A stretch of DNA of 64,000 nt from Steroidobacteraceae bacterium (GTDB taxonomy: Bacteria > Pseudomonadota > Gammaproteobacteria > Steroidobacterales > Steroidobacteraceae), in assembly GCA_017853175.1 (NCBI GenBank), contig JAFMKA010000002.1, positions 41,651 to 105,650 on the forward strand. Direction: 5' to 3'. The notes under the pieces were generated by a model, which was given only the letters and a program-made list of their open reading frames with translations, made no database searches and was not told where the DNA came from. Positions 2,480-63,060 of this stretch are shown piece after piece; positions within the stretch are counted from its first letter, which is position 1; the number at the start of each line of letters is the position of its first letter. The translations under genes were made by a program, and so were the position numbers.

Positions 2480-4306
2480 GTGATCCGCATGATCCGCCGC
2501 CCCTTCATCCGAACGTTGTTCTGCCTCGCGAGCCTGGTTGTCGCGAGCAGTTCGGCCGTTGCGGACATCGACATCGAAATCAACGGTGTCGAAGGAGCGA
2601 TGCGTCGCAACGTGCTCACTTTTCTGAGCCTCGAACGATACAAGGGCCGTGACGATCTCGATCAAGCCCTGATCGAGCGTTTACAGGAGCGCGCAGAGCG
2701 CGAGGCGGCGAACGCGCTGCGCCCCTTCGGTTACTACGAGGCTCAAGTTACCTCCACCGTCGAGCTCGTCGGCGAAGGGCGATGGCGCGCGCGACTCAAT
2801 ATCGATCTTGGAAAACCGGTGATCTTGGAAAACGTCGAGATCGGCGTAACGGGCGCGGGAAGCGAGGATCCGGCCTTTCGTGCCTTGCTGTCTACGGCGC
2901 CGCTCAAGAACGGTAGCCGTCTGGACCACGCGAGCTACGACACGCTCAAAGATGGGCTGCGTCGAACGGCGGCCACGCTCGGTTATGTCGATGCAACTTT
3001 GACGGCGAGCGAATTATGGGTCGACCCCTCACGACATGCCGCCTCGGTACGGCTCGTCATGAATACAGGCGAGCGATATCGATTCGGAGCGACCACCATC
3101 GAGCAGCGCTCGCTCGAAGAGTCACTGCTTCGACGATTTCTTAGATATGAAGAATCCGCACCCTACGATGCCACGCAATTATTGAGGACGCAGTTCGCAC
3201 TCGATGACAGTCAATATTTTTCGAATGTCGAAGTGCTCGCCGGATCGCCGGATATCGACAAGCGCGTCATTCCGGTCAGCATTCGGGCAGAACCCAATCG
3301 TCGCAACCGTTATTCAGTGGGCGCGGGCTACGCCACAGACAGCAAAGCTCGCGGCACTCTGACTTGGGAAAATCGTCGCCTCAACGACCGAGGTCATCGC
3401 TCACGTGCCGAAATCAAGGCCGCACAACTCGAGCAGTCGGTCGAGGCGCGCTATATCGTTCCGATCGGCGATCCGGCGCTCGAGAAGCTCGGCTTCGAAT
3501 GGCGTTACTCGCGCGACGAGTTGGGCGATCTCGATACTCGAACTACTCGCTTCCAGCCCTCGGTCACTCAAGTTAACGGCGACTGGCAACGCGTGATGTT
3601 CGCTTCGCTGAGCCGTGTTCGAACCATCACAGCTGGCTCTTTGAGTCGTAGTGACATCGATGAATCGACGACGCTCGTGATTCCCGGAATCAGCTATGCC
3701 TCCATTCCACGCGGTTATCTGGGCGAGGCGTTGTTCTCGCGCGCGCTCTACGCGGAGCTTCGCGGCTCAGCGACGGGCCTCGGCGCCGAAGAGGATTACC
3801 TTCAACTGCGAATCGAAGCAGAGAGAGTTTTCGATCTCGGACCTCGTTGGCATCTTTTTTTGCGAGGCCAAGTGGGTGCAACGTTGGTATCGGATGCGAC
3901 GAAACTTCCGGGTACCGAGCGATTTTTCGCTGGTGGTGATCGCAGCGTCCGCGGCTTCGGATACAACGATCTCTCACCGATCGAGGAAGGCAGCACCAAA
4001 GTCGGTGGTCGACATCTCGCAACGGGAACTCTCGAAGTCATCCGCGATCTGCCGCGAAATCTCGGCATCGCAGCATTCGTCGACGCCGGTAACGCATTCA
4101 ATTCTTTCGGAGACCCCATTCAGTACTCGGTCGGCATCGGCGTGAGGCTTCGATTGCCGATCGTCACGCTCGGAATCGACATCGCTCAGCCGCTGACGAA
4201 TCCGGCGTGCCGCAGTGTCACGCCAGATCCGCGCTGCAATCTCGAGCCCGGCTTCGATAAGCGCCCGGGCCCGCGCTTGCACTTCAATTTCTCGCCGAAG
4301 CTCTGA
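2480..4306 (+). CDS. tamA: translocation and assembly module outer-membrane subunit TamA (Omp85 family)
   Basis: Signal peptide (FCLASLVVASSSAVA), POTRA-like N-terminus and an Omp85 barrel C-terminus ending in an aromatic-rich strand. tamB follows immediately. Start is GTG 2480 or ATG 2489. Confidence 0.85.
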   Translation: MIRMIRRPFIRTLFCLASLVVASSSAVADIDIEINGVEGAMRRNVLTFLSLERYKGRDDLDQALIERLQERAEREAANALRPFGYYEAQVTSTVELVGEGRWRARLNIDLGKPVILENVEIGVTGAGSEDPAFRALLSTAPLKNGSRLDHASYDTLKDGLRRTAATLGYVDATLTASELWVDPSRHAASVRLVMNTGERYRFGATTIEQRSLEESLLRRFLRYEESAPYDATQLLRTQFALDDSQYFSNVEVLAGSPDIDKRVIPVSIRAEPNRRNRYSVGAGYATDSKARGTLTWENRRLNDRGHRSRAEIKAAQLEQSVEARYIVPIGDPALEKLGFEWRYSRDELGDLDTRTTRFQPSVTQVNGDWQRVMFASLSRVRTITAGSLSRSDIDESTTLVIPGISYASIPRGYLGEALFSRALYAELRGSATGLGAEEDYLQLRIEAERVFDLGPRWHLFLRGQVGATLVSDATKLPGTERFFAGGDRSVRGFGYNDLSPIEEGSTKVGGRHLATGTLEVIRDLPRNLGIAAFVDAGNAFNSFGDPIQYSVGIGVRLRLPIVTLGIDIAQPLTNPACRSVTPDPRCNLEPGFDKRPGPRLHFNFSPKL

Positions 4307-4313
4307 GCGCGAT

Positions 4314-7300
4314 ATGAAACGGCGAAATACTTTGGTCGCGGTTTTGATCACGCTCTTGCTCGCGGTACCGATCGCAGGACTCTGGACGCTCGGCCACTCC
4401 GAATCGGCCTTACAGCGGCTCGTGTCGCTGGTACCCGAGAAATTCGGCACTTTGCAGAAGCTCTCGATTCGTGATGTCCGAGGCACGCTCGCAGACGGTT
4501 TCCAAATTGGCGCTGTTGATATCGAGCACGATATCGTGAGCCTGCAACTGCGTGACGTGAGGGCACGAGTCGATCTGATTCCTTTGCTTTGGCAATCGGT
4601 CGAGGCGTCCGAGCTCTCCGTCGGCGAGCTCGTCATCAAACAAGAGGAGCGCGATCAGCCGCCTCCCGACAAACCTCCGCGCTTTCTCCCTCGCTTGCTC
4701 ACCGTCGAGCTGCGCGCTGCCAAAATTCCCGTGATGGAAATTCATCCGATGAAGGGTGACCCGGTCGTCATCCGAAATATCGACTTCCAAGCCATGGTTC
4801 GCAGTACCACGATCAAGTTTGGGAAGCTCGATGCATCGCTCGGTGGAATGCGTCTCGAACTTACGGGATTGTTGAGCTCAGCGATGCCGCTCGAACTCGA
4901 GGGCGATATCCGCATGGCCTACGACCCTCGCCGCGGGCCGCGTTGGCGGGCCGAGGGGCGCTTCGACGGTGATCTCGATAACGCTCGTTTGCAGGCGACG
5001 CTGCTAGAACCTTTCGATGTCCGTCTCGAAGACGGCTCGATGAAATTGCTCGCACCGTGGAGCGTTCGCGGCGAGGCCTCGGTTGCTAATCTCGACGTCC
5101 GCAAATTCGGTGGCTCAGCGTTCCTGGGACTCATCGGCGGCAACGTGTCGATCATCGCCGACCGAGATGGCTATCGAGTGACAGGACGTCTTCTGCCACC
5201 CGGACTCGAAGCAGGCCCGATCGATGTCAGCTTCGATGGTTTTTACTTTCGTAACGTACTCACCGCACGCCGCATCACGCTCGCCCATGCCGGTGCGAAC
5301 ACGCAGGCTGAAATCTTCGGGACCTTCACTCCGACCGAAGAGGGTCTTGTGCTCGATCTTGAAGGGCGATGGACAAAGCTTCGCTGGCCCCTCGCCGACA
5401 CGACGCCGGCACTCGACAGCACTCGCGGACAATTTACGTTTCGCGGTTATGGTCCGTATGCGATCAGCGCCAAAGCCGATGCGCGTATCGGTGCGCTGCC
5501 TCGTATCGAGGCAAATCTCGAGGCCACTCTCGAACCTGGTCGATTCGAGTTGACGAGCATTGAAGCGCGCGCACTCGATGGGTCTGCAAGCTTAACCGGC
5601 GAGATCGCCTGGCGCCCGAGCGAGCGCTGGCAGATTAGCGGACCGGTCCGGGGAGTGAACCCGGGAAACATCCGCTCTGCTTTGCCAGGCAATGTGAATT
5701 TCTCACTCGACGCACGCGGCCGCGGTTTTGGCGCACGCAGCACCATCGACGTCGAGGTCAAAAATCTCTCAGGACGTTTACGAGGCACGCCCGCGCGAGG
5801 ATCGGGAGCGCTGACCGTCGCGGGCGACATGCTGCAGTTCAAAGATATCGATCTGTCGGCTGGCGGACTACGACTGGCTCTCGATGGAAGTCTGACACCC
5901 CGTCGGAACGACCTGAATTTCAGAATCTTCGCCGATGACCTTGGCGTACTTGCAGAAGGTGGAACGGGAAAATTACGCGCTAACGGAACCTTACGTGGTG
6001 CACCTAATGCGATGAAAGTGCGGCTCGACGCGAGTGGCGAGAACTTGACTCTCAATGACCTCAAGATCGGGCGACTCTCGGCAAATGTCGATCTCGACCC
6101 GACAGGAGGCGCTGAAGCGTCAGCGACGGCGCGCGTCGAAGTCGACGATATCCGTGCCTTGGGGCGTCGCGCCGAGCGCCTGAGACTCGACATCGCCGGT
6201 CGCAGCGCCGCACACACCATTGGCGTCGAGATCTCTGGCAATGACATCGGGCTTTCGGCGCAAGCCAATGGGCGTTTCGATGTTCAAGGCTGGACTCAGC
6301 AGTGGTCGACCCTCGCCTTGAGACTGCCGGATAACATCGTGCTCGGGCTCGAGCAGTCACTCGGCATTCAGCTCACGACCGACTCCATTACCGTGTCGCC
6401 CTTCTGTCTCCGCGGAGAGAAAGGCTCCAGCCTGACCGATGCGGCAACGCTCTGCGCGTCAGGCCGTCGAAACGATACCGGCTGGGCGATGGACGCTGCC
6501 GCGTCGCGCTTACCGATCGCGAGTCTTCTGCCTCCGCCTAACGCGAAGGCTCAATACCAGGGCTCGGTCAATGCATCGGTCAACCTACGCTCAGCAGTCG
6601 ATGGTTCTCCACGGGGCCTCGCGCGAGCGGACTTCGAGGGCGCCGCGCTACGCTGGCAGCGTGCCGGCGGCCGACAAGACCTCATTCCGCTCGGCTCCGG
6701 ATCCTTAATCGTCGAATCGAACGACGAAGGCCTCTTCGGCACGCTGGACGTTGCTGCCGATCAGCGAGGGCGCGCGCGCGGCGAACTCAAAGCTCTTCGC
6801 AGCGATGATCTCGAGTCGGTAGCGTGGCGCGATCTCCCGATCACGGCCACGTTACGCGCCGACTCCTCGGCCCTCGCACTTCTTTATCTTTACGTTCCGG
6901 AGATCGATCGATCCGCCGGAGAGCTGTCGATGGACTTGATCATCGGCGGAACGCTCGGCACGCCGCTCGTCAATGGCGTCGTGCGTCTCGAAAAAGGCGA
7001 GCTCGACTTCTATCAGGTGAATCTCGCACTCCGCGGTATTCGCGCTGAAGCCCGTCTCATCGACAATGGGTTCGTTCTCGATGCCTCGGCTCGCGCAGGT
7101 GAAGGCACCATTCAAGCTGACGCACAGCTGACTTGGCGCGGGGGTGAACCTTATGGCGAGCTTCAACTGAAAGGCTCCGACCTTGTCGTCATCGACGTGC
7201 CCGAGGCTCGAATCACCGCCTCTCCCGATCTGCGCTTCAAAGTTTCGGGTCGTGATCTCGAAGCGACGGGTACCGTACTGATTCCCGCCGCACGTATCAC

Positions 7301-26996: not shown

Positions 26997-27571
26997 GCAA
27001 CACCCCGATCGGTCGCGACTTCAAACGCGCAGGCCGGCGCGGTGGCACGGAATTCAGCTTTTCCAAGGAATTCTTTGCAGGTCTCGCAGCGGGTCTCGCC
27101 GTGGCAGTCGGCGTCTTTTTTTGGCAGCAACAGGCCGTCAAAGATGCCCGCGATGCCGTAGGAGAAGATCAGCCCACGCCTCGCCCAGTACGGCGTGAGC
27201 CCGCCTCCGCGGCTGCGGCCGAACCCGAACGCGAGTACGATTTTTACGGGATGCTGCCGAAGAGCGAAGTGGTCGTCCCGGAAACCGACCCTAAGGCACC
27301 CGTACCCGCAGTGCCCAATACGCCCATCGAAAGGCCGGGGGTCTACGTTCTTCAACTTGGAATGTTCAAAAAGCTGGAAGAGGCTGAACGCCTTCAGGCC
27401 AAGTTGCTGAGACTCGGCGTTCAATCGGCCGTGCAACGAATCTCGATCGAGAGTGAAGTGCTACATCGGGTTCGGATCGGGCCCGTCAGTAATCTCAGCG
27501 ATCTCAATCGAACTCGAGCTGCATTGCAGCGTGCGGAAATCGATGCTGTCGTAATTCGCGTCGGCGATTAA
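26993..27571 (+). CDS. SPOR domain-containing cell-division protein
   Basis: GTG overlaps the argS stop. Membrane anchor, Pro/Ala linker and a C-terminal SPOR fold (VYVLQLGMFKKLEEAERLQAKL...HRVRIGP). Confidence 0.8.
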   Translation: MSNTPIGRDFKRAGRRGGTEFSFSKEFFAGLAAGLAVAVGVFFWQQQAVKDARDAVGEDQPTPRPVRREPASAAAAEPEREYDFYGMLPKSEVVVPETDPKAPVPAVPNTPIERPGVYVLQLGMFKKLEEAERLQAKLLRLGVQSAVQRISIESEVLHRVRIGPVSNLSDLNRTRAALQRAEIDAVVIRVGD

Positions 27572-28917
27572 GTCTCGACGTCGTCCGATACGCTCCGGAA
27601 ATCGACGCCCAGAGCGCGCAACTTCCGGTAGAGATGTGTGCGCTCCATTCCGACTCGCTTGGCCAACTGACCGACTTTTCCGTGACAGAGCAAAAGCTGC
27701 TGTTGCAGATAAGCGCGCTCGAAATGCTCTCTCGCTTCACGTAAGCCCAGCGCCAAAAGATCTTGCTTCACTAAGGTCTCGGCGGGCGGCGCGACCTGTG
27801 ACAGTTCGCGCTCGATCTCTTCGAGTGAAACCTCTTCGCCGCCACCCTGCAGGAGCAACCGACGGACCATGGTTCGAAGTTCCTGCACATTGCCGGGCCA
27901 CGGATAATTGCGCAGACGATTTTGTGCGGCGATGCTGAAACGTCGAAACCCGAGGCCCTCACTGTCGACCAACCGATCGACATAGTGTCGAAGCAGATCC
28001 GGAACATCCTCCGCATACTCTCGAAGCGGAGGCACTCGGGCGATGGCGGCGCTCAGATGCGACAACAAATCACGACGCATCGCTCCTTGCTCGATCTCCG
28101 GCTGCGCCGAACATACGATGCGAGCCTGAAATGGTCGGGGTTTCGACTCTCCGAGCCGCGAATAGGTTCGAGTCTCGAGTAGTCCGAGCAATGCGCGTTG
28201 GGCCGTTTGCGGCAAATCGCCGATTTCATTGATGAATAAGGTTCCGTCGCCCACCTGATCGAGAAATCCGTCGTGGCTTGCACTGCCAAATAGCGCGGCT
28301 TCGGCATCGACCTCGCGCAGTGCGCTCGAAACGATCGCCACGAACGGTTTGACCGCGCGCGGACTATGATCGTGCACAAAACGAGCAAAGGCCTCACGAC
28401 CCGAGCCGAACTCACCGAGCAGCATCAGCGACGTAGTGCCATTGGCGTGCCGCAGCAGCTCGCTGCGCAACTGCTGAACCTGACGACTCTTTCCGACGGG
28501 TGCAGCGATCGCTCCCGCCTTCGACTTGACCGCCGCCCTACGCGCCCGAGCCCCCTCGAGCGCCTTCTCGACGGTCCGCAATAACTTGGCGAGCGACAGC
28601 GGCTTTTCGACGAAATCGATGGCGCCGAGCCGGGTTGCTTCGACGGCGGTATCAACCGTGCCGTGACCAGACATCATCACGACCGCACAGCCATCGGCAC
28701 TCGTCGAAGACCATTCACGGAGTAAGGTGATGCCATCGACATCGGGCATCCAAATATCGAGCAACACGAGATCGGGCTGCTGGCGTTGGCGCAACGATCG
28801 AGCTTCGGCGCCATTCGCCGCGACCTCAACCTCGTAACCCTCTTCGCTCAGGATTTCTTTGACGAGACCGCGGATATCCGCCTCGTCGTCCACCACAAGA
28901 ATGCGTGCTGCACTCAT
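27568..28917 (-). CDS. ntrX: NtrX-like response regulator (receiver + degenerate AAA+ + Fis-type HTH)
   Basis: Receiver ILVVDDEADIR...LVLLDIWMPDVDG. The central domain has GEFGSGRE instead of GESGTGKE, FINEIG instead of FLDEIG, and no GAFTGA. C-terminal HTH GQLAKRVGMERTHLYRKL. The stop overlaps the start of the kinase gene context. Confidence 0.7.
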   Translation of the reverse strand: MSAARILVVDDEADIRGLVKEILSEEGYEVEVAANGAEARSLRQRQQPDLVLLDIWMPDVDGITLLREWSSTSADGCAVVMMSGHGTVDTAVEATRLGAIDFVEKPLSLAKLLRTVEKALEGARARRAAVKSKAGAIAAPVGKSRQVQQLRSELLRHANGTTSLMLLGEFGSGREAFARFVHDHSPRAVKPFVAIVSSALREVDAEAALFGSASHDGFLDQVGDGTLFINEIGDLPQTAQRALLGLLETRTYSRLGESKPRPFQARIVCSAQPEIEQGAMRRDLLSHLSAAIARVPPLREYAEDVPDLLRHYVDRLVDSEGLGFRRFSIAAQNRLRNYPWPGNVQELRTMVRRLLLQGGGEEVSLEEIERELSQVAPPAETLVKQDLLALGLREAREHFERAYLQQQLLLCHGKVGQLAKRVGMERTHLYRKLRALGVDFRSVSDDVET

Positions 28918-54309: not shown

Positions 54310-57096
54310 ATGAGTGCCTTACCGACTTCGCCGCCCGATCTCGTCCTCGTAGACGGGTCCTCCTATCTCTATCGCGCCTTCCACGCGCTTCCGCCGCTCA
54401 CCAACTCGAAAGGCGAGCCTACCGGCGCCGTGCTCGGCGTGATCAACATGCTGCTCAAGCTGATGCGCGAAACTGCGCCGGCTCGATTTGCCGTCGTATT
54501 CGATGCGCCAGGAAAAACGTTCCGCGACGAGCTCTTCGCGGAATACAAATCGCATCGACCACCGATGCCCGACGATTTACGTTCGCAAGTCGAACCCTTG
54601 CTCGAAGTCGTTCGCGCGCTCGGTCTGCCTTTGCTGCGAATTTCTGGAGTCGAGGCCGACGATGTCATAGGCACCCTCGCCCGACGCGCATCGAGCACGG
54701 GGCAAAACGTTCTGATTTCGACGGGCGACAAAGATATGTGCCAACTCGTCGAACCGCGCATCACTCTCGTCAATACGATGAGCGGCAGCCTTTACGATCG
54801 TGAGGGGGTGAAAGCGAAATTCGATGTATGGCCTGAGCAAATCATCGATTACCTCGCATTGGTCGGCGACAGTTCAGACAACATTCCGGGCATCGATAAA
54901 GTCGGACCGAAAACCGCGGCGAAGTGGCTAGGGCAATACCAAACGCTCGATCAGCTCATCGCGAACGCCCACGAGGTGACGGGGAAAGTTGGCGACAACT
55001 TACGCGCGGGCCTCGAAACACTCGAGCTGTCTCGAAAACTCGCAACGATTCGGGGTGATCTCGAATTGCCGATCGAAGCCGAGACGCTCGACCGCAGACC
55101 CGCCGATGACGAGACCCTACGCTCGCTATACACGCGCCTCGAATTCCGAGCATTACTGCGTACACTCGACGGCGGCAAAGAATCGGACGACTCCAACGGA
55201 AGCCCCGCGGGGACGAAAACTGCACAAAGTACACCGGATGCCTCAGGTCTCGAACTTCGTCCCGATATTGCCAATGCTCCGCGGCAATACGAAACCGTAC
55301 TCGATCAAACCGCTTTCGAGCGTTGGTGCCAGACACTCGAGCGCACAGAGATCTTCGCCTTCGATACTGAAACGACCAGTCTCGATTACATGGCCGCGCA
55401 GATCGTCGGCGTCTCGTTCTGCATCGAGCCCGGTATCTCCGCTTATGTGCCCCTGAGGCACGACTATGTCGGGGCACCGGCGCAACTCGATCGCGACACC
55501 TTTCTTGCGCGTCTGAAACCTCTGCTCGAGAGCGAGTCCCATCACAAGATCGGCCACAACTTGAAATACGATGCGCACGTACTCGCCAATCACGGCATCA
55601 CACTGCGCGGCATGCGTCATGACACCATGCTCGAGTCGTATGTATGGAATAGCGTCGCCACCCGACACGATATGGACTCCGCAGCCCTGCGCTATCTAGG
55701 TCTGACGACGATCACGTATGAAGACGTCGCCGGAAAAGGCGCTAAGCAGATTTCTTTCGAGCAGGTATCCATCGAGCGCGCCGGTGAATACGCCGCCGAG
55801 GATGCTGACGTCACGCTGCGATTACATCGCACGCTTTGGCCTGCAATTACACAGCAGCCTCAACTTAAGCGTCTCTATGAAGAATTCGAGCAGCCGCTCG
55901 TCGGTGTCTTGCAGCGGATGGAAAGGCGCGGCGTGCTGATCGATCGAGAGATGCTACGCCTGCAGAGCAGCGAACTCGCACGTCGAGCCGAGGAACTCAA
56001 AGCACAGGCTCATGCGGAGGCGGGTACGGACTTCAATCTCGACTCACCCAAGCAGTTGCAGCAAATCTTGTTCGAAAAGATGCAGATTCCGGTGTTGCGA
56101 AAGACACCGACCGGTCAGCCCTCGACCGCCGAGGATGTACTTGAAGAGCTTGCGGATGCCTACGCTCTACCACGACTGATCCTGGACTATCGAAGCATCG
56201 CGAAGCTGCGCAGCACCTACACGGAAAAGCTTCCCTTGCAGGTCAATGCCGAAACCGGGCGCGTTCACACGTCTTACCATCAAGCCGTCGCGCAAACTGG
56301 TCGACTCTCGTCGACCGACCCGAACCTTCAAAATATTCCCATCCGCACACCCGAAGGGCGTCGTATTCGAAAGGCCTTCATCGCGCCGCCGAAGCACGTA
56401 TTGCTGGCTGCAGACTACTCGCAAATCGAGCTGCGGATCATGGCCCATCTGTCGGCAGACGCGGGACTGCTCGGTGCATTCGAAGCGGATCGCGACGTAC
56501 ACCAAGCCACGGCGGCAGAGGTATTCGGTGTGCCGCTCGATTCGGTATCTGCCGATCAGCGGCGATCGGCCAAGGCCATCAACTTCGGGCTCATCTACGG
56601 TATGTCCGCCTTCGGACTCGCACGGCAACTCGGCATCGACCGCAGTTCAGCTCAAAGATATGTCGATTTGTATTTCGAGCGATATCCCGGCGTGAAGGCG
56701 TACATGGATCGCACTCGAGAACAGGCCAAAGACACGGGCTTCGTCGAGACGGTCTTCGGGCGTCGTCTTTATCTGCCTGATATCCGCTCGCGCAATCGGG
56801 CCCTGCAGCAGTACGCCGAGCGCAGCGCGATCAACGCACCGATGCAGGGTACGGCGGCGGATCTCATCAAGCTCGCCATGATCCATGTCGATAGTTGGTG
56901 CGAGCGCGAATCGATGAGCAAAGCCCAACTCATCATGCAGGTGCACGACGAGCTCGTGCTCGAAGTGCGAGAGGATGCCGTCGTCGAGGTCACCGACGCC
57001 GTGCGTCGCTGCATGATCGACGCCGGCCGAAACGCGCTGCGCGTACCCCTGAAGGTGGACGTCGGTGTGGGTCAGAACTGGGACGAAGCCCACTGA
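54310..57096 (+). CDS. polA: DNA polymerase I
   Basis: 5' nuclease domain (LVDGSSYLYRAFHA), 3'-5' exo (FAFDTETTSLD) and polymerase motifs (DYSQIELR, RRSAKAINFGLIYG, QVHDEL). Confidence 0.97.
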   Translation: MSALPTSPPDLVLVDGSSYLYRAFHALPPLTNSKGEPTGAVLGVINMLLKLMRETAPARFAVVFDAPGKTFRDELFAEYKSHRPPMPDDLRSQVEPLLEVVRALGLPLLRISGVEADDVIGTLARRASSTGQNVLISTGDKDMCQLVEPRITLVNTMSGSLYDREGVKAKFDVWPEQIIDYLALVGDSSDNIPGIDKVGPKTAAKWLGQYQTLDQLIANAHEVTGKVGDNLRAGLETLELSRKLATIRGDLELPIEAETLDRRPADDETLRSLYTRLEFRALLRTLDGGKESDDSNGSPAGTKTAQSTPDASGLELRPDIANAPRQYETVLDQTAFERWCQTLERTEIFAFDTETTSLDYMAAQIVGVSFCIEPGISAYVPLRHDYVGAPAQLDRDTFLARLKPLLESESHHKIGHNLKYDAHVLANHGITLRGMRHDTMLESYVWNSVATRHDMDSAALRYLGLTTITYEDVAGKGAKQISFEQVSIERAGEYAAEDADVTLRLHRTLWPAITQQPQLKRLYEEFEQPLVGVLQRMERRGVLIDREMLRLQSSELARRAEELKAQAHAEAGTDFNLDSPKQLQQILFEKMQIPVLRKTPTGQPSTAEDVLEELADAYALPRLILDYRSIAKLRSTYTEKLPLQVNAETGRVHTSYHQAVAQTGRLSSTDPNLQNIPIRTPEGRRIRKAFIAPPKHVLLAADYSQIELRIMAHLSADAGLLGAFEADRDVHQATAAEVFGVPLDSVSADQRRSAKAINFGLIYGMSAFGLARQLGIDRSSAQRYVDLYFERYPGVKAYMDRTREQAKDTGFVETVFGRRLYLPDIRSRNRALQQYAERSAINAPMQGTAADLIKLAMIHVDSWCERESMSKAQLIMQVHDELVLEVREDAVVEVTDAVRRCMIDAGRNALRVPLKVDVGVGQNWDEAH

Positions 57097-57164
57097 TCTT
57101 TCGGTGTTGCGAGCACGCGACAGCGAAATCTATAACTCATTGATTATTAATTAATTTTATTTCT

Positions 57165-57192
57165 GAACTTTCTCAGTTCTCGGCGGGTCTTA
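57165..57192 (+). promoter_or_regulatory. candidate sigma-E/AlgU-type (ECF) promoter for the downstream sRNA
   Basis: GAACTT (57165-70), 17 nt spacer, then TCTTA (57188-92), against the consensus GAACTT-N16/17-TCnnA. It is preceded by a 35-nt AT-rich tract. Confidence 0.5.
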
Positions 57193-57197
57193 ATGCT

Positions 57198-57307
57198 TGA
57201 ACGTAGAGCGTTCCCCGCTTCTATCCCTCCCTGAGCGGGCCCCGGCCATGAGACCTGTGCCGGGTTCGTCTGCCCCCGGTCACCGCAAGGTTTCCGGGGG
57301 TTTTTTT
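57198..57307 (+). ncRNA. candidate sRNA in the polA-engB spacer (positional equivalent of Spot 42 / ErsA)
   Basis: No ORF. Four consecutive hairpins: GAACG/CGTTC 57199-57213; CCCGCT/AGCGGG 57214-57239 with loop UCUAUCCCUCCCUG; CCCGGC/GCCGGG 57241-57264; CCCCCGG/CCGGGGG 57273-57300. A T7 run follows. The 5' end is inferred from the promoter. Confidence 0.55.
57273..57307 (+). terminator. Rho-independent terminator of the sRNA candidate
   Basis: A 7-bp GC stem (57273-79 / 57294-300), a 14-nt loop, then TTTTTTT (57301-07). It abuts the engB stop codon on the other strand. Confidence 0.7.
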
Positions 57308-57986
57308 ATGACCTAGCGCTCGCCCAAAGTTCATCGAGCCGATCGCGCGCCTCGTCTACCCCCAAACCCGAATGCGCCGAGAATAACTGGGCCGTCGCGA
57401 CCTCGCCGAGGGTCGCCTGAGCCTCCCGCAACGCTGCAGCCCGCTCCGCCTGATTGAGCTTGTCCGCCTTGGCGATCAGCACGTGAATTCGGCGCCGAGT
57501 GGGGTCGGCCCACTCGATTAGCCCGAGATCCTCGTCCCGCAGACCCCGTCGACAATCGACCACCAGAAGCAGCCCCCGAAGGCTCTCCCTCTCTCGCAAC
57601 GCATCGAGTAGCGGGACCCATTTGCTGCGTTCATCGGCTCGGATGTCGGCATAACCGTATCCGGGAAGATCGACGATCCGATGCCCCGCCTCCAGCTCGA
57701 AATAATTAAGCAAACGGGTCTGCCCCGGAGTCTTGCTCGTCCGAGCCAAGGCCTTGCGCCCCGAAATGGCGTTGATGGCGCTCGACTTACCCGCATTGGA
57801 GCGGCCTGCAAAGGCCACCTCCGCCCCCGCGTCGGCCGGAAACTGCACGGGCGCCGCCACGCTCAGGATGAAGTTCGCCTTTGGAAAACGCGACACGATA
57901 GGACCGCCCGCACAGGCACGAAAAAGGGGCGTTAGTGTAAACTCCTCGGCCTGAAATCGACGTTCGGAGCCTGCAGAAATGTTCAT
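57306..57986 (-). CDS. engB: ribosome biogenesis GTPase EngB (YihA)
   Basis: EVAFAGRSNAGKSSAIN (G1), DLPGYGY (G3) and KADK (G4). ORF 57306..58133 trimmed to ATG 57986. An in-frame GTG at 57896 would give an N-terminus of E. coli-like length and remove the 8-bp divergent overlap with the cytochrome gene. Confidence 0.85.
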   Translation of the reverse strand: MNISAGSERRFQAEEFTLTPLFRACAGGPIVSRFPKANFILSVAAPVQFPADAGAEVAFAGRSNAGKSSAINAISGRKALARTSKTPGQTRLLNYFELEAGHRIVDLPGYGYADIRADERSKWVPLLDALRERESLRGLLLVVDCRRGLRDEDLGLIEWADPTRRRIHVLIAKADKLNQAERAAALREAQATLGEVATAQLFSAHSGLGVDEARDRLDELWASARS

Positions 57987-58629
57987 CGCCAAGCCCTTCG
58001 CTGCCGCACTGGCCACCGCTGCCCTCGCCGTCCTGATGGCGCCCGCAGCCCTCGCCAAGGGCAATGCCGAAGCAGGCGCTACCAAAGCTGCGGTATGTGC
58101 AGCCTGCCACGGCGTCAATGGCAGCAGCGTCAACCCCGAGTGGCCGAATCTCGCGGGTCAAAGCCCCGTCTACATTCAGGAGCAGTTGCGCCTGTTCCGC
58201 GCCGGACATCGAAACAACATGGTGATGTACCCGCTCGCCATGGCGCTGACCGACGAAGACATCGCTGACCTCGCGGCGTACTTCTCCACGCAGACCCCCA
58301 CGGGTCTAGAAGCCGATCCGACCAACTACAAATTAGGCGAAGCCCTTTATCGAGGCGGTGATCGCACGCGTAATCTGCCGTCATGCGCCTCGTGCCACGG
58401 CCCGGTGGGTCTCGGCAACGCAACCGCGGGTTATCCCGCGCTTCGCGCTCAGCACGCGACCTACACGCTCAAGCAACTAACCGATTACACAAACGATCAG
58501 CGTTACGTCGATATCGCCACCGGCACGCCGACCAAGTCGCGCAATGGACACATGATGTCCACGATCGCGAAGCGCCTCACCGAAGAAGACAAGAAGGCCT
58601 TGGCAAGCTACATCCAGGGTCTTCGCTGA
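57979..58629 (+). CDS. dihaem cytochrome c4
   Basis: Signal peptide and two CxxCH haem sites (CAACHG, CASCHG) in duplicated domains. Confidence 0.85.
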   Translation: MFIAKPFAAALATAALAVLMAPAALAKGNAEAGATKAAVCAACHGVNGSSVNPEWPNLAGQSPVYIQEQLRLFRAGHRNNMVMYPLAMALTDEDIADLAAYFSTQTPTGLEADPTNYKLGEALYRGGDRTRNLPSCASCHGPVGLGNATAGYPALRAQHATYTLKQLTDYTNDQRYVDIATGTPTKSRNGHMMSTIAKRLTEEDKKALASYIQGLR

Positions 58630-60324: not shown

Positions 60325-60403
60325 AAAATCGCTTAGTGGGGCGTCCCTAGTTAAGGGCTTGACTGCCGGCTCCACCGGCGGAAACTTGGGGATGGAGGAT
60401 GCC

Positions 60404-62560
60404 ATGACCCGAGCCTTTCGTTTCCTGACGTTCTATTTTTTGACCGCTCTCGTTTGGCCGGAACAATCGATCGCGGCAGAATCTGACGACTTCCGCCACG
60501 CGCTGATCATCGGAGTCGCAGTGTATCGCGACGAGGAAGTCCCCCCGCTTTTTGGCGTCCCCAACGATATGGACAGCGCGCGCGAAATCGCTACAGCGAT
60601 GGGTATTCCTGCCGCGAACATCACCGAACTTTTCAACGAGCAAGCAACCAAGAACAACATCATCGCCGAGCTACGAAAACTCTCTCAGCGAAAAACTGAT
60701 GGCGGACGCATCCTCATCTATTTCTCTGGACATTGCACGCGCTGGCGCGAAGCGAGCTCCGGGGGTTGCGTCGAGGGTCTGCTCACCTGGGACAGACAAG
60801 TCATCGTCAATCGTGAGTTTGCACAGTTCGCAAGACCGCTAGGCTTGAAAGCCGACAAACTCATCATCATGTTCGACGCATGCCACTCCGGAGGCGTTGC
60901 GGGTGTGGCTCGCAATACGAGGTCGCTCGGTGGCAACGCGCTTTCCCCAAAATTCTTTATGCGTGCCGATGCCACAGACGCGGCATGTAGTAAGCCCTCG
61001 AACGTTCGCACGAGAAGTCTGATCGGCCCTGCTCAAGACGGCATCGAACCGCTGCCCGAAAACGTCGTGCATATCATGTCGGCCCGCCCCGACGAGGTGA
61101 GCTTCGATGAGCCAAGTCGCGGCGGCCTTGCCACACAGGCCGTTAAGCGGTGCCTACTCGGCGGTGCGACGGATACCGATGGCAGCGGAGGAGTGTCTCT
61201 GGCAGAAGTCGAAAACTGTTCTCAGGGCTTCATCCGCGAAAAAGTCGCGCGCTTCCCTGACTTACTACCCCACCATATTTCTATCTCAGGTCTCCGCAAT
61301 CTCGTGCCGGTCGCCGCGCAGAGCAGCGGTGCCACCCCTTCGGCCGAAGCCGTCCGCCTCGAAAAAGAACGACTCGCCAAAGAACAGCAAGAAGCCGAGC
61401 AACGTCGGAGAGCCGAAGAGGAACGAATCGCGACTCAGCGTGCCGAGCAGGTTCGGCTCGAGCAAGCGCGAGCGGCTGAAGAGCGGGCGCGAGCCGAAGC
61501 TGAACAATCGAGACTCGCCGCTGAACGTGCCGAAGCCGAAAAAGCTCGCCTCGCAGCGGAACGAGCCGAGGCCGAAAAACAGCGGCTCGCCGCCGAGCGC
61601 GCCGAGCAAGCCAAGCGCGAGCAAGAGCGCCTCGCCAAAGAACGCGCTCAGGCCGAAGCTGAAAAAGCTCGCCTCGCGGCAGAGCGAGCCGAGGCCGAGA
61701 AGCAGCGACTTGCCGCCGAGCGTGCCGAGCAGGCTAAACGCGATCAGGAGCGTATCGCTAAAGAACGGGCCCGAGCGGAGGCGGAGCAGGCCCGTCTCGC
61801 GGCGGAGCGAGCGGCTGCCGAAAAAGCCCGCCTCGTAGCGGAGCGTGCAGAAGCCGAGAAGCAACGACTCGCCGCAGAACGCCTCGCGCAGGCCCGACTC
61901 GAACAAGAAAGGCTCGCTGCGGAGGCGGCACTCGCCACAGCAGCCCAGGCCGCAGCAGCTCAAGCCGCAGCAGCCCAGACCGCAGCAGCGCAGGCCGCTG
62001 CACTACAGGCGAACACCCCTACGGCGGCGACCGGACCCAGCAGCGCGCCTTCAGCACCTGCAGCGGTCGGGGCTCTGGCCTCGCTCAAAGATATCTATGC
62101 TCAACGGGATACCCGGAGGAGCGTTACCGTCACCGTACCGAAGGACACTTTGCGCATCGATCAAGACCCGTTCACGATGACCGTGACCTCTTCGCATGCG
62201 GGGTACGTCTATGTGCTACTTCTCGGAAGTGATGAAACGAGCTTCTACATGCTCTTCCCTAACGCACTCGACGAAGCCAATCGCATCGAAGCTAACAAAC
62301 CCCTGAAACTTCCGCGCCCCCACTGGGGGGTCAATGCGGCGGGGCCGCCGGGGACGGATCAAATCTTGGTCATCGTTTCGGAGACGGCTCGAAACCTCGC
62401 CGTCTTGCCAAACCAAGCGAGCGGTGCCGAAAATACGTTCATCCTGACCCCCGCAGATTTGGGCGGACGTCGCCAACTCGTGAACTTCGTCATTGGCTCG
62501 GGTGTTTCGGGTGCCTCGCGTTTCGGTGCGAACTGGATAACCGTCAAGGAGGTTCAATGA
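60404..62560 (+). CDS. exported caspase-family (peptidase C14) protein with long coiled coil and DUF4384-like C-terminal domain
   Basis: ORF 60359.. trimmed to ATG 60404, with GGAGG at 60394-98. Signal-like [26 protein letters not shown]. Catalytic dyad contexts ILIYFSGHC and [11 protein letters not shown]. An E/R/A/K/Q helix of about 220 aa. The C-terminal [27 protein letters not shown] resembles DUF4384. Confidence 0.85.
61344..62010 (+). repeat. coding tandem repeat (41-codon/123-bp units plus a 15-bp Ala/Gln repeat) encoding a TolA-like helical spacer
   Basis: Units start at 61544, 61667 and 61790 ([41 protein letters not shown] and variants). They are flanked by looser ERLAKE-type heptads. 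GCAGCAGCNCARRCC x4 lies at about 61940-62003. Confidence 0.8.
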
Positions 62561-63060
62561 TTACCTTTCAATTCGTTTTTTTGGTCGCCCTTCTTGCGGC
62601 TCCTCCACCGAACCCGACGGCTCAAGACATCATTGACCGCCTGAGCGACGCGCCTGCCAAAGAAGCTCAGGGCAACCTTGGGCAAACGAGAAGTCTTCGA
62701 AATCTCGCTCCTAAGATGCGTGCCATCGACATGAACATTCAGTTCGAGTTCAACTCGGCAAAGATCACCCAAGAAGGGAGCGATGCGCTTCAGCAACTCT
62801 CGATCGCGATGAAGTCTGCGCAACTCCTCGAGTCTCGATTCGTTATCGTAGGCCACACCGACGCGAAAGGCACAGCCCAGTACAACCTCGACCTGTCTTC
62901 ACGACGCGCTCAGTCCGTTTTGGGTTATCTCAAGTCGCAAGGCATCGATATCGGCCGTCTCGAAGCGGTCGGCAAGGGGTTCAACGAGTTACTCAACGAA
63001 GATGATCCTCTCGCCGCCGAAAACCGCCGGGTCCGGATCGTCGCGGTGTCTACGCCATGA
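62557..63060 (+). CDS. OmpA-family peptidoglycan-binding protein
   Basis: ATGA overlap with the caspase gene. N-terminal hydrophobic signal. OmpA_C-like core FEFNSAKIT...[26 protein letters not shown]...ENRRVRI. Confidence 0.85.

Follow-up and report, generated by a model that had tools for sequence, protein, structure and literature searches.

A study of sX13, a small RNA (sRNA) of the Xanthomonadaceae that lies just downstream of polA, raised the question of whether other bacteria have related sRNAs at their polA locus (PMC3771888). Here we take up this question for a 64,000-nucleotide (nt) stretch of a Steroidobacteraceae genome (GCA_017853175.1, contig JAFMKA010000002.1, positions 41,651 to 105,650; hereafter the window, numbered from its first letter), in which polA and engB enclose a 209-bp spacer free of open reading frames (ORFs; 57097-57305). 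An initial annotation, made from the letters of the window and a list of its ORFs, had placed in this spacer an envelope-stress sRNA equivalent to Spot 42 and ErsA. We conclude that the spacer very probably holds a real, expressed sRNA of the anti-hemB family, known as ncS04 in Burkholderia. Taken as a whole, the evidence makes it likely that this is a trans-acting anti-hemB/ncS04 sRNA of a Steroidobacteraceae-like gammaproteobacterium, with its own RpoE/AlgU-type promoter and a loop that mimics the anti-Shine–Dalgarno sequence. The family itself has already been described; what is new is its conserved RpoE-type promoter, its anchoring to engB rather than hemB, and its positional and possibly evolutionary link to ErsA.

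The polA–engB spacer holds an anti-hemB RNA

A scan of the whole window against Rfam at curated thresholds returned no match, and the anti-hemB family emerged in E-value mode only. Positions 57212-57309 align to RF02837 (anti-hemB, ‘Burkholderia RNA 7’) over model positions 1-81 of 81, with 46.6 bits and an E value of 5.5e-10, and the stem of hairpin 2 and its CCUCCCUG loop match exactly. The description of RF02837 names Burkholderia only, and the model was built without the window sequence. Its gathering cut-off of 49.5 bits is an operational threshold and not a biological feature. Orthologues in metagenome-assembled genomes (MAGs) of a Steroidobacteraceae bacterium (locus L102, 56.0 bits) and of Acidibacter (L130, 51.1 bits) lie above it, as do other members of both proteobacterial classes concerned, Beta- and Gammaproteobacteria (50.9 to 84.6 bits), and an unbroken series of orthologues leads from the window through the Steroidobacteraceae to Burkholderia. 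Because close orthologues and members of both classes pass the cut-off, we count the window copy as belonging to a known family, with a score slightly under the threshold. A covariance model that we built (R1) scores it at 63.8 bits and finds a single copy in the window. The Rfam searches that the initial annotation had proposed, with the Spot 42 and ErsA models, do not match the window; RF02837, which it had not recognized, does.

The anti-hemB RNA was described by Weinberg et al. in 2007 as part of the hemB/anti-hemB motif, with a free-standing non-coding RNA proposed for the anti-hemB strand, ending in a terminator and followed by a gene on the opposite strand (PMC1950547). The window has the same arrangement, with a terminator at 57272-57307 and engB converging on it, and it has the hairpin of the family, CCCGCUU-CUAUCCCUCCCU-GAGCGGG at 57214-57239, the loop of which carries CCUCCCUG. 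The upstream hemB gene from which the family takes its name is replaced by polA, a matter of context and not a property of the RNA. In Burkholderia cenocepacia J2315, anti-hemB is ncS04, a 105-nt RNA with a transcription start site (TSS) mapped by differential RNA sequencing and a 3′ end mapped by rapid amplification of cDNA ends; Northern blots show it, and Hfq binding is reported; its gene is flanked by hemB (BCAL0264) and engB (BCAL0265) and converges with the latter (PMC5688073). The window RNA and ncS04/anti-hemB have in common the hairpin CCCGC-loop-CCUCCCUGAGCGGG, a terminator with a U tail, a convergent engB, and a −35/−10 motif at the same distance from the 5′ end. They differ in the loop, which is longer in the window (CUAUCCCUCCCU) than in anti-hemB (UCUCCUCCCU), in the upstream gene (polA versus hemB) and in hairpin 3 (CCCGGCC…GAGACCUGUG…GCCGGG versus GCCUGUCG…), and the terminator loop of the window lacks the CUCCCCUU motif common in Betaproteobacteria.

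The sRNA gene is linked to engB across two classes

An exact-protein look-up of the window PolA returned no record, and near relatives were gathered instead through EngB homologues, which yielded 17 metagenomic loci around engB. The nearest homologues belong to uncultured Gammaproteobacteria and the nearest named ones to Steroidobacteraceae; the sRNA is present in all 17 loci. A scan of species genomes with the pattern CCCGC-N3-12-CCTCCCTGAGCGGG then gave at least 120 stretches. Among the matches listed, to which all counts below refer, 112 are usable loci and eight are chance matches inside coding sequence. In these two classes, Beta- and Gammaproteobacteria, the hairpin CCCGC…CCUCCCUGAGCGGG is found in well over 100 species, a lower bound. 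Betaproteobacterial matches include Paraburkholderia, Caballeronia, Pandoraea, Cupriavidus, Bordetella, Rhodocyclaceae, Methylophilaceae, Gallionellaceae, Comamonadaceae and Vogesella, and gammaproteobacterial ones Steroidobacteraceae, Acidibacter, Ectothiorhodospira, Immundisolibacter, Rudaea and further MAGs. Pseudomonas, Xanthomonas and true enterobacterial genomes are not among the matches listed, which is not to be read as absence from those taxa. The closest named relatives are L102 and L130, the EngB of which is 78% and the PolA 82-84% identical to that of the window (tblastn for PolA).

A convergent engB lies 67-955 nt downstream of the sRNA in 71 of the 112 usable loci. polA is the upstream gene in gammaproteobacterial loci only, and hemB, confirmed by the Pfam domain ALAD, lies divergently upstream in 74 loci, which comprise essentially all Betaproteobacteria including the Comamonadaceae. 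engB is therefore the sole neighbour common to both classes. Rearranged loci separate the sRNA from either flank: in L005-8 a TonB_C/Sel1 gene is inserted before engB and the sRNA remains beside polA, and in L015-17 a TonB-dependent receptor (L015:4345-6771) takes the place of polA and the sRNA remains beside engB. (In L005 the inserted gene spans 4119-5513; the sRNA of that locus, at 5557-5655 on the minus strand, belongs to a lineage without hairpin 3.) Because the RNA stays with polA in the first group and with engB in the second, after the loss of polA, it is not a polA 3′ untranslated region.

This bears on the most sceptical account of the locus, in which there is no gene at all and stacked terminator hairpins in the polA 3′ untranslated region happen to follow a promoter-like match. 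GC-rich genomes form hairpins readily, the minus strand of the element folds too, and the promoter motif is no rarer in the window than chance allows (see below). Yet the Rfam match has an E value of 5.5e-10, the element recurs in more than 100 species behind differing upstream genes, its promoter is conserved, its first hairpin covaries and one homologue has a mapped primary 5′ end. This account is effectively refuted by the comparative data, and the earlier view of an independent sRNA gene rather than polA read-through is borne out, as the RNA persists without polA and keeps a conserved promoter of its own.

The same synteny can be used to weigh two explanations in terms of the neighbouring genes. 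A regulator of haem synthesis, acting on hemB in cis or as an antisense RNA, would fit the divergent hemB in the 74 betaproteobacterial loci and the original description of the motif (PMC1950547); further support comes from a 2026 preprint connecting anti-hemB with hemB and with low salinity (bioRxiv 10.64898/2026.09.01.748597). We hold it to be very improbable: polA takes the upstream position in the window and in every Steroidobacteraceae-type locus, the RNA, whose transcription leads away from hemB, has no overlap with the hemB mRNA, and Weinberg et al. themselves proposed a free-standing RNA for the anti-hemB strand (PMC1950547). The other explanation assigns the element a cis role at engB, chiefly that of a bidirectional terminator or of an antisense or interference element for the engB 3′ end. 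Such a role would account for the old linkage to engB, and in the window the engB stop codon overlaps the U tract, with a minus-strand hairpin directly after it. That hairpin is not followed by a U tract, however, and the most conserved part of the RNA is the loop of hairpin 2, some 70 nt from engB, rather than the terminator. Comamonadaceae retain the RNA without engB, a gene parts the two in L005-8, and ncS04 builds up as a discrete, Hfq-binding RNA (PMC5688073). A cis action on engB is accordingly improbable, and we retain the free-standing, trans-acting sRNA.

Two lineages stand out for their arrangement. A Comamonadaceae subgroup (L052, L046, L024, L033 and others) has hemB upstream, no engB nearby and a conserved hairpin 3 of its own (GCCUUGAUGUGUGACAGCAAAAAGGC). 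Ectothiorhodospira mobilis DSM 4180 carries two tandem sibling copies (L137:1720-2064, plus strand), each with its own GAACTT-N16-TC… promoter and terminator, with the loops UUAACCCCCUGA in copy 1 and CCUCCCUG in copy 2.

Structure and conservation of the RNA

Folding of 57198-57307 gives exactly four consecutive hairpins joined by linkers of 0-7 nt (Table 1), with a minimum free energy (MFE) of −50.2 kcal/mol and a z-score of −3.44; none of 200 shuffled sequences was as stable, and 57190-57310 folds in the same way. The initial annotation had described about 110 nt with four hairpins and seven T residues after the last, preceded in a 209-bp ORF-free gap by an AT-rich tract and GAACTT-N17-TCTTA; all of these elements are present where it had placed them. 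The terminator hairpin occupies 57272-57301 and the T7 tract 57301-57307. A simple terminator rule (loop of 3-8 nt) misses it because the real hairpin contains an inner stem. The loop of hairpin 2 (CUAUCCCUCCCU, 57221-57232) is closed by a U.G pair, and its C-rich run, CCCUCCCUG, occupies 57225-57233. As the annotation had noted for sites of the RBS (ribosome-binding site) type, this loop is complementary to GGGAGGG, and it is predicted to be unpaired. The minus strand folds as well (z-score −2.2); three features favour the plus strand, namely its U tract, its promoter and, in hairpin 2, a U.G pair that is kept in 20 of 20 sequences of a gammaproteobacterial subgroup.

Conservation was assessed on 97 representative sequences. 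Hairpin 1 is found in all 97, in 91 distinct sequences; the C-rich loop CCUCCCUG is unpaired in the MFE structure of all 97; and a terminal hairpin with a U tail is found in 96. The inner stems vary by lineage. Hairpin 1 and the terminator covary, and in the 20 sequences of the gammaproteobacterial subgroup hairpin 1 shows compensatory changes at two pairs (10-23, GC in 13 and AU in 6; 11-22, CG in 12 and UA in 8). Hairpin 3 is variable: other stems replace it, such as CUGUCCGG…CCCGACAG in L040, and it is absent in L005. A second C-rich motif sits at the apex of the terminator in 50 of the 97 representatives. RNAalifold on the 97 members, aligned with MAFFT, recovered hairpins 1 and 2 only, because hairpin 3 and the terminator differ in length, and it mis-paired the 3′ half in the 20-sequence subset; these two elements were therefore examined sequence by sequence.

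Within the Steroidobacteraceae subgroup, the hairpin-3 loop GAGACCUGUG and a downstream GUCU are nearly invariant (57250-57271 in the window). The AGAC of the loop and this GUCU are complementary and could form a pseudoknot or an alternative pairing, or serve as a second seed; their invariance provides no covariation.

A conserved RpoE/AlgU-type promoter

GAACTT-N16/17-TCnnA is the consensus of RpoE/AlgU promoters, a type recognized by extracytoplasmic function (ECF) sigma factors. The family consensus upstream of the sRNA, ggAACTttt…TCtnA, is of this form. AAC-N17-19-TCnnA precedes hairpin 1 in 56 of the 71 engB-linked loci; 200 shuffles gave 2.4 such loci on average and 8 at most. The spacing is GAACTT-N16 in 46 loci and N17 in 22, and among the −10 variants TCTTA is the most frequent (16 loci), ahead of TCATA, TCTCA, TCTGA and TCAGA. 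The 25 nt upstream of AAC are 54% A+T across orthologues, in loci that average 63% G+C. A promoter scan of the polA–engB gap found no sigma-70-like promoter.

In the window and in the Pseudomonas ErsA promoter the −35 context is identical (CTGAACTTTC) and the spacer is 17 nt, with −10 elements of TCTTA and TCAGA, respectively; ErsA, an sRNA of Pseudomonas aeruginosa, is under sigma-22 (AlgU) control (PMC13613067). The RpoE/AlgU-type motif recognized in the initial annotation thus matches that of a promoter with experimental evidence of sigma-22 dependence. The ErsA 5′ end, located by comparing the T7_ErsA_Fw primer with the loci, lies 6 nt past the −10 element. For ncS04, which starts with CGAGCGG, comparison of its mapped 5′ end with Paraburkholderia orthologues gives the same distance, 6 nt past TCATA. 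Because both ends fall at this distance, we place the start of the window sRNA at about 57198. From these similarities, control of the window sRNA by an RpoE-type sigma factor appears reasonably probable.

The same slot as ErsA and Spot 42

Pseudomonas ErsA loci, fetched with a 25-nt stretch of a published ErsA primer, have the order polA, ErsA, engB, cytochrome c4 and dsbA; order, slot and strand are those of the window. The order in E. coli K-12 is polA, spf and yihA, with Spot 42 on the polA strand, as the sRNA is here. The slot and orientation that the initial annotation gave for ErsA and Spot 42 therefore stand, and the window RNA is their positional equivalent. Functional equivalence, the other half of that proposal, remains a conjecture. 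Pairing by ErsA involves nt 26-56, which are U-rich and unstructured (PMC5819304). This region is missing in the window RNA, which displays a C-rich hairpin loop instead.

The two RNAs are alike in their hairpin at the 5′ end and in length. The ErsA model (RF01719, Pseudomon-1/ErsA) has no match in 57050-57400 at E values up to 10, compared with 134-137 bits in the Pseudomonas loci, and R1 matches ErsA at the terminator only (14-20 bits). An sRNA in an uncultured gammaproteobacterial MAG (L020:2782-2912, minus strand) looks chimeric. Its 5′ half matches anti-hemB with 49 bits, and its two 3′ hairpins match the ErsA model with 26 bits at positions 34-113 (E = 0.003 when 301 nt were searched, 0.58 when 58 kb were); its terminator loop, CUUCCCCCCCCC, resembles that of ErsA, CUUCCCCCUCCCC. 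The shared slot, strand, promoter and 5′ hairpin, together with this partial ErsA match, make common descent of ErsA and anti-hemB plausible; they are suggestive and not proof. We tentatively entertain the broader possibility, which we consider somewhat doubtful, that a single ancient sigma-E-driven sRNA gene, convergent with engB and predating the split of Beta- and Gammaproteobacteria, was ancestral to anti-hemB/ncS04, to the Steroidobacteraceae/Ectothiorhodospiraceae form and to ErsA, with the seed remodelled in each lineage (mostly a C-rich loop, a U-rich linker in Pseudomonas). Conceivably, sX13 and Spot 42 are of the same lineage.

Homology to Spot 42 was considered and rejected. Its model (RF00021) matches neither the window at the curated threshold nor 57050-57400 at E values up to 10, and R1 finds only the spf terminator, with 11 bits, in keeping with the earlier impression that the sequence is unlike Spot 42. 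The spf promoter is repressed by CRP, in line with the title of a study cited in PMC3771888 (reference 79), and is not known to be of the ECF type. Spot 42 also encodes a small protein, SpfP (L180:3418-3465), whereas a 13-codon ORF in the window (see below) is not conserved.

Three further groups of sRNAs offer partial parallels. MicA, RybB and MicL of Enterobacteria have a GGAACTT-N16-TCnnA RpoE promoter, are short, of the Hfq type and end in an intrinsic terminator, and repress mRNAs of envelope proteins; their seed is a single-stranded 5′ region rather than a C-rich hairpin loop, and their sequences are not known to be related to the window RNA. The sX13 model (RF02232) gives 16.8 bits and E = 0.56 in the window, below its cut-off of 50, and weak scores of 20-24 bits in L020, L050 and L137. 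sX13 has three stem-loops with C-rich (4C/5C) loops and targets G-rich sites near RBSs; in Xanthomonas it is constitutive and Hfq-independent, and the gene downstream is hypothetical (PMC3771888). It resembles the window RNA in adjoining polA and in its C-rich loops and differs in its downstream neighbour, which is not engB. Finally, the toxic small RNAs of Betaproteobacteria (RF02278; ncS03, ncS05, ncS27 and ncS62) have CU-rich unpaired stretches complementary to RBSs; overexpression of ncS27 attenuated growth, and silencing of its CU-rich region did the opposite (PMC5688073). Like the window RNA they combine short hairpin and terminator, but they are double hairpins of another family at unrelated loci, and the sole link is a weak 22.9-bit match to L020.

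A proposed mode of action and its weak points

From these features we propose the following mechanism. The sRNA would be transcribed from its own ECF promoter, GAACTT-N17-TCTTA, with the AT-rich tract upstream, from about 57198 to the intrinsic terminator adjoining the stop codon of engB, to give an RNA with four hairpins, some 110 nt long. In hairpin 2, the apical loop would display CCCUCCCUG, a mimic of the anti-Shine–Dalgarno sequence of 16S ribosomal RNA, which most likely pairs with GGGAGG-type RBSs of target mRNAs and blocks the initiation of translation. The terminator and its U tail may provide a handle for Hfq. The CCCUCCCUG loop is the most conserved, always-exposed element of the family, and the C-rich run is the likely seed. 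RBS occlusion has been proposed for sX13 (PMC3771888) and for CU-rich Burkholderia sRNAs (PMC5688073), and occlusion in trans would be the most economical explanation here. We hold repression of targets through this anti-Shine–Dalgarno loop to be slightly more likely than not. Judging by its promoter, the sRNA probably belongs to the envelope-stress (sigma-E) regulon, alongside ErsA.

Several observations weigh against this proposal or some part of it. The window copy falls 2.9 bits short of the RF02837 gathering score. No variation is seen in the stem of hairpin 2, but the pattern used to collect the homologues fixes this stem and its loop in all 112 loci, so covariation of the stem cannot be judged. 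GAACN18-19TCTNA has four matches in the window against 3.6 expected, no rarer than chance; the significance of the promoter motif comes from its conservation across orthologues and not from its rarity. The window sRNA is read from its sequence, with support for expression coming from its relative ncS04, and the literature reports no target for any member of the anti-hemB family. A Shine–Dalgarno sequence complementary to the loop precedes a long ORF at one site in the window, at about 28930 on the minus strand, which is uninformative. That site is the Shine–Dalgarno sequence (GGAGGAGGGAG) of a sigma-54-dependent response regulator (27568-28917, minus strand; Response_reg, Sigma54_activat and HTH_8 domains), a possible target.

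The remaining objections concern the sigma factor. ncS04 is unchanged under 0.01% sodium dodecyl sulfate, H2O2, NaCl, low pH, low iron, biofilm growth, stationary phase and starvation (PMC5688073), which argues against strong induction by stress, at least in Burkholderia. Loci of the Burkholderia group and Cupriavidus have a −10 region, TATCATA, that is also sigma-70-like (TGATA in one locus), and the Comamonadaceae copies have a plain sigma-70-like promoter, TTGAAA-N17-TAAATT; control by sigma-E is therefore not universal in the family. These promoter forms may account for the constitutive look of ncS04. No usable account of an RpoE consensus in Burkholderia, or of an RpoE regulon that includes the ncS04 locus, came up in a literature search. 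Together with the constitutive expression of sX13, another RNA with C-rich loops beside polA (PMC3771888), the unchanged levels of ncS04 and these promoter forms would suit an sRNA that is the same in all but its control: constitutive, or driven by basal sigma-E, a different ECF factor or sigma-70, and acting as a housekeeping modulator of translation rather than as an envelope-stress effector. We regard this as rather unlikely for the window. Its −10 element (TCTTA, or CTTAAT) does not have the A that occupies position 2 in a sigma-70 hexamer, and no sigma-70-like site was called. Furthermore, GGAAC at −35 is kept across two proteobacterial classes, and the promoter is nearly identical to the sigma-22-dependent one of ErsA. 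An RpoE/AlgU-type promoter thus remains our preferred reading of the window.

Layout of the locus

The coordinates of the sRNA gene and its neighbours are collected in Table 1. The gene order in the window is HIPIP, polA, sRNA, engB, cytochrome c4, DsbA and CorA. polA orthologues in L001 and L009 have the Pfam domains 5_3_exonuc, DNA_pol_A_exo1 and DNA_pol_A. The engB stop codon (57306-57308) overlaps the final two T residues of the U tract, and engB converges with the sRNA; its product is 226 amino acids (aa), the same length as homologue P0001.

Table 1 Features of the sRNA gene and its flanking genes in the window
Feature	Position	Strand	Basis	Remarks
polA (DNA polymerase I, 928 aa)	54310-57096	+	ORF	Upstream neighbour, same strand as sRNA
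AT-rich tract, UP-element-like	57140-57164	+	Sequence	Upstream of −35
−35 element GAACTT, RpoE/AlgU-type (ECF)	57165-57170	+	Sequence and family consensus ggAACTttt	
−10 element TCTTA	57188-57192	+		17-nt spacer after −35
Predicted sRNA transcript	57198-57307	+	Rfam match, fold	About 110 nt; predicted 5′ end, ± about 2 nt
Hairpin 1 (GAACGU-AGA-GCGUUC)	57199-57213	+	Fold	
Hairpin 2, stem CCCGCUU/GAGCGGG	57214-57239	+	Fold and Rfam anti-hemB consensus	Apical loop CUAUCCCUCCCU
Hairpin 3 (CCCGGCC…GCCGGG)	57241-57264	+	Fold and alignment	Conserved loop GAGACCUGUG
Intrinsic terminator hairpin and U7	57272-57307	+	Fold	
engB/yihA (ribosome-biogenesis GTPase)	57306-57986	−	Translation; homologues named YihA/EngB, PF01926	

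The mechanically called ORFs of engB (57306-58133, minus strand, 275 aa, TTG start) and cytochrome c4 (57979-58629, plus strand, 216 aa) are over-extended and overlap. The lengths of homologues suggest 196-226 aa for EngB, starting at or before 57986, and about 197 aa for the cytochrome, with a short divergent promoter region between them. Farther downstream, a 733-aa caspase-domain protein (Peptidase_C14, DUF4384) is followed directly by an OmpA-family protein (60359-63060, plus strand); the same caspase-domain gene follows corA in L001.

A 13-codon ORF at 57193-57234 (plus strand; MLERRAFPASIPP*) that overlaps hairpins 1 and 2 was considered as a small protein and rejected. It is probably not coding, because its ATG lies upstream of the predicted sRNA start and is missing in L001 and L012.

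Implications

First described in 2007, the anti-hemB RNA is expressed in Burkholderia and bound there by Hfq, and both the name of the family and a recent preprint point to haem. The comparative picture points away from haem: engB, and not hemB, is common to both classes, and the engB-linked members have a conserved RpoE/AlgU-type promoter. In Gammaproteobacteria the sRNA gene fills the exact slot of ErsA, a finding that bears on the question, raised for sX13, of whether related sRNAs occupy the polA locus across bacteria. Envelope and outer-membrane mRNAs with GGGAGG-type RBSs suggest themselves as candidate targets. If a common ancient origin is true, anti-hemB would be a core member of the envelope-stress regulon and not a haem regulator.

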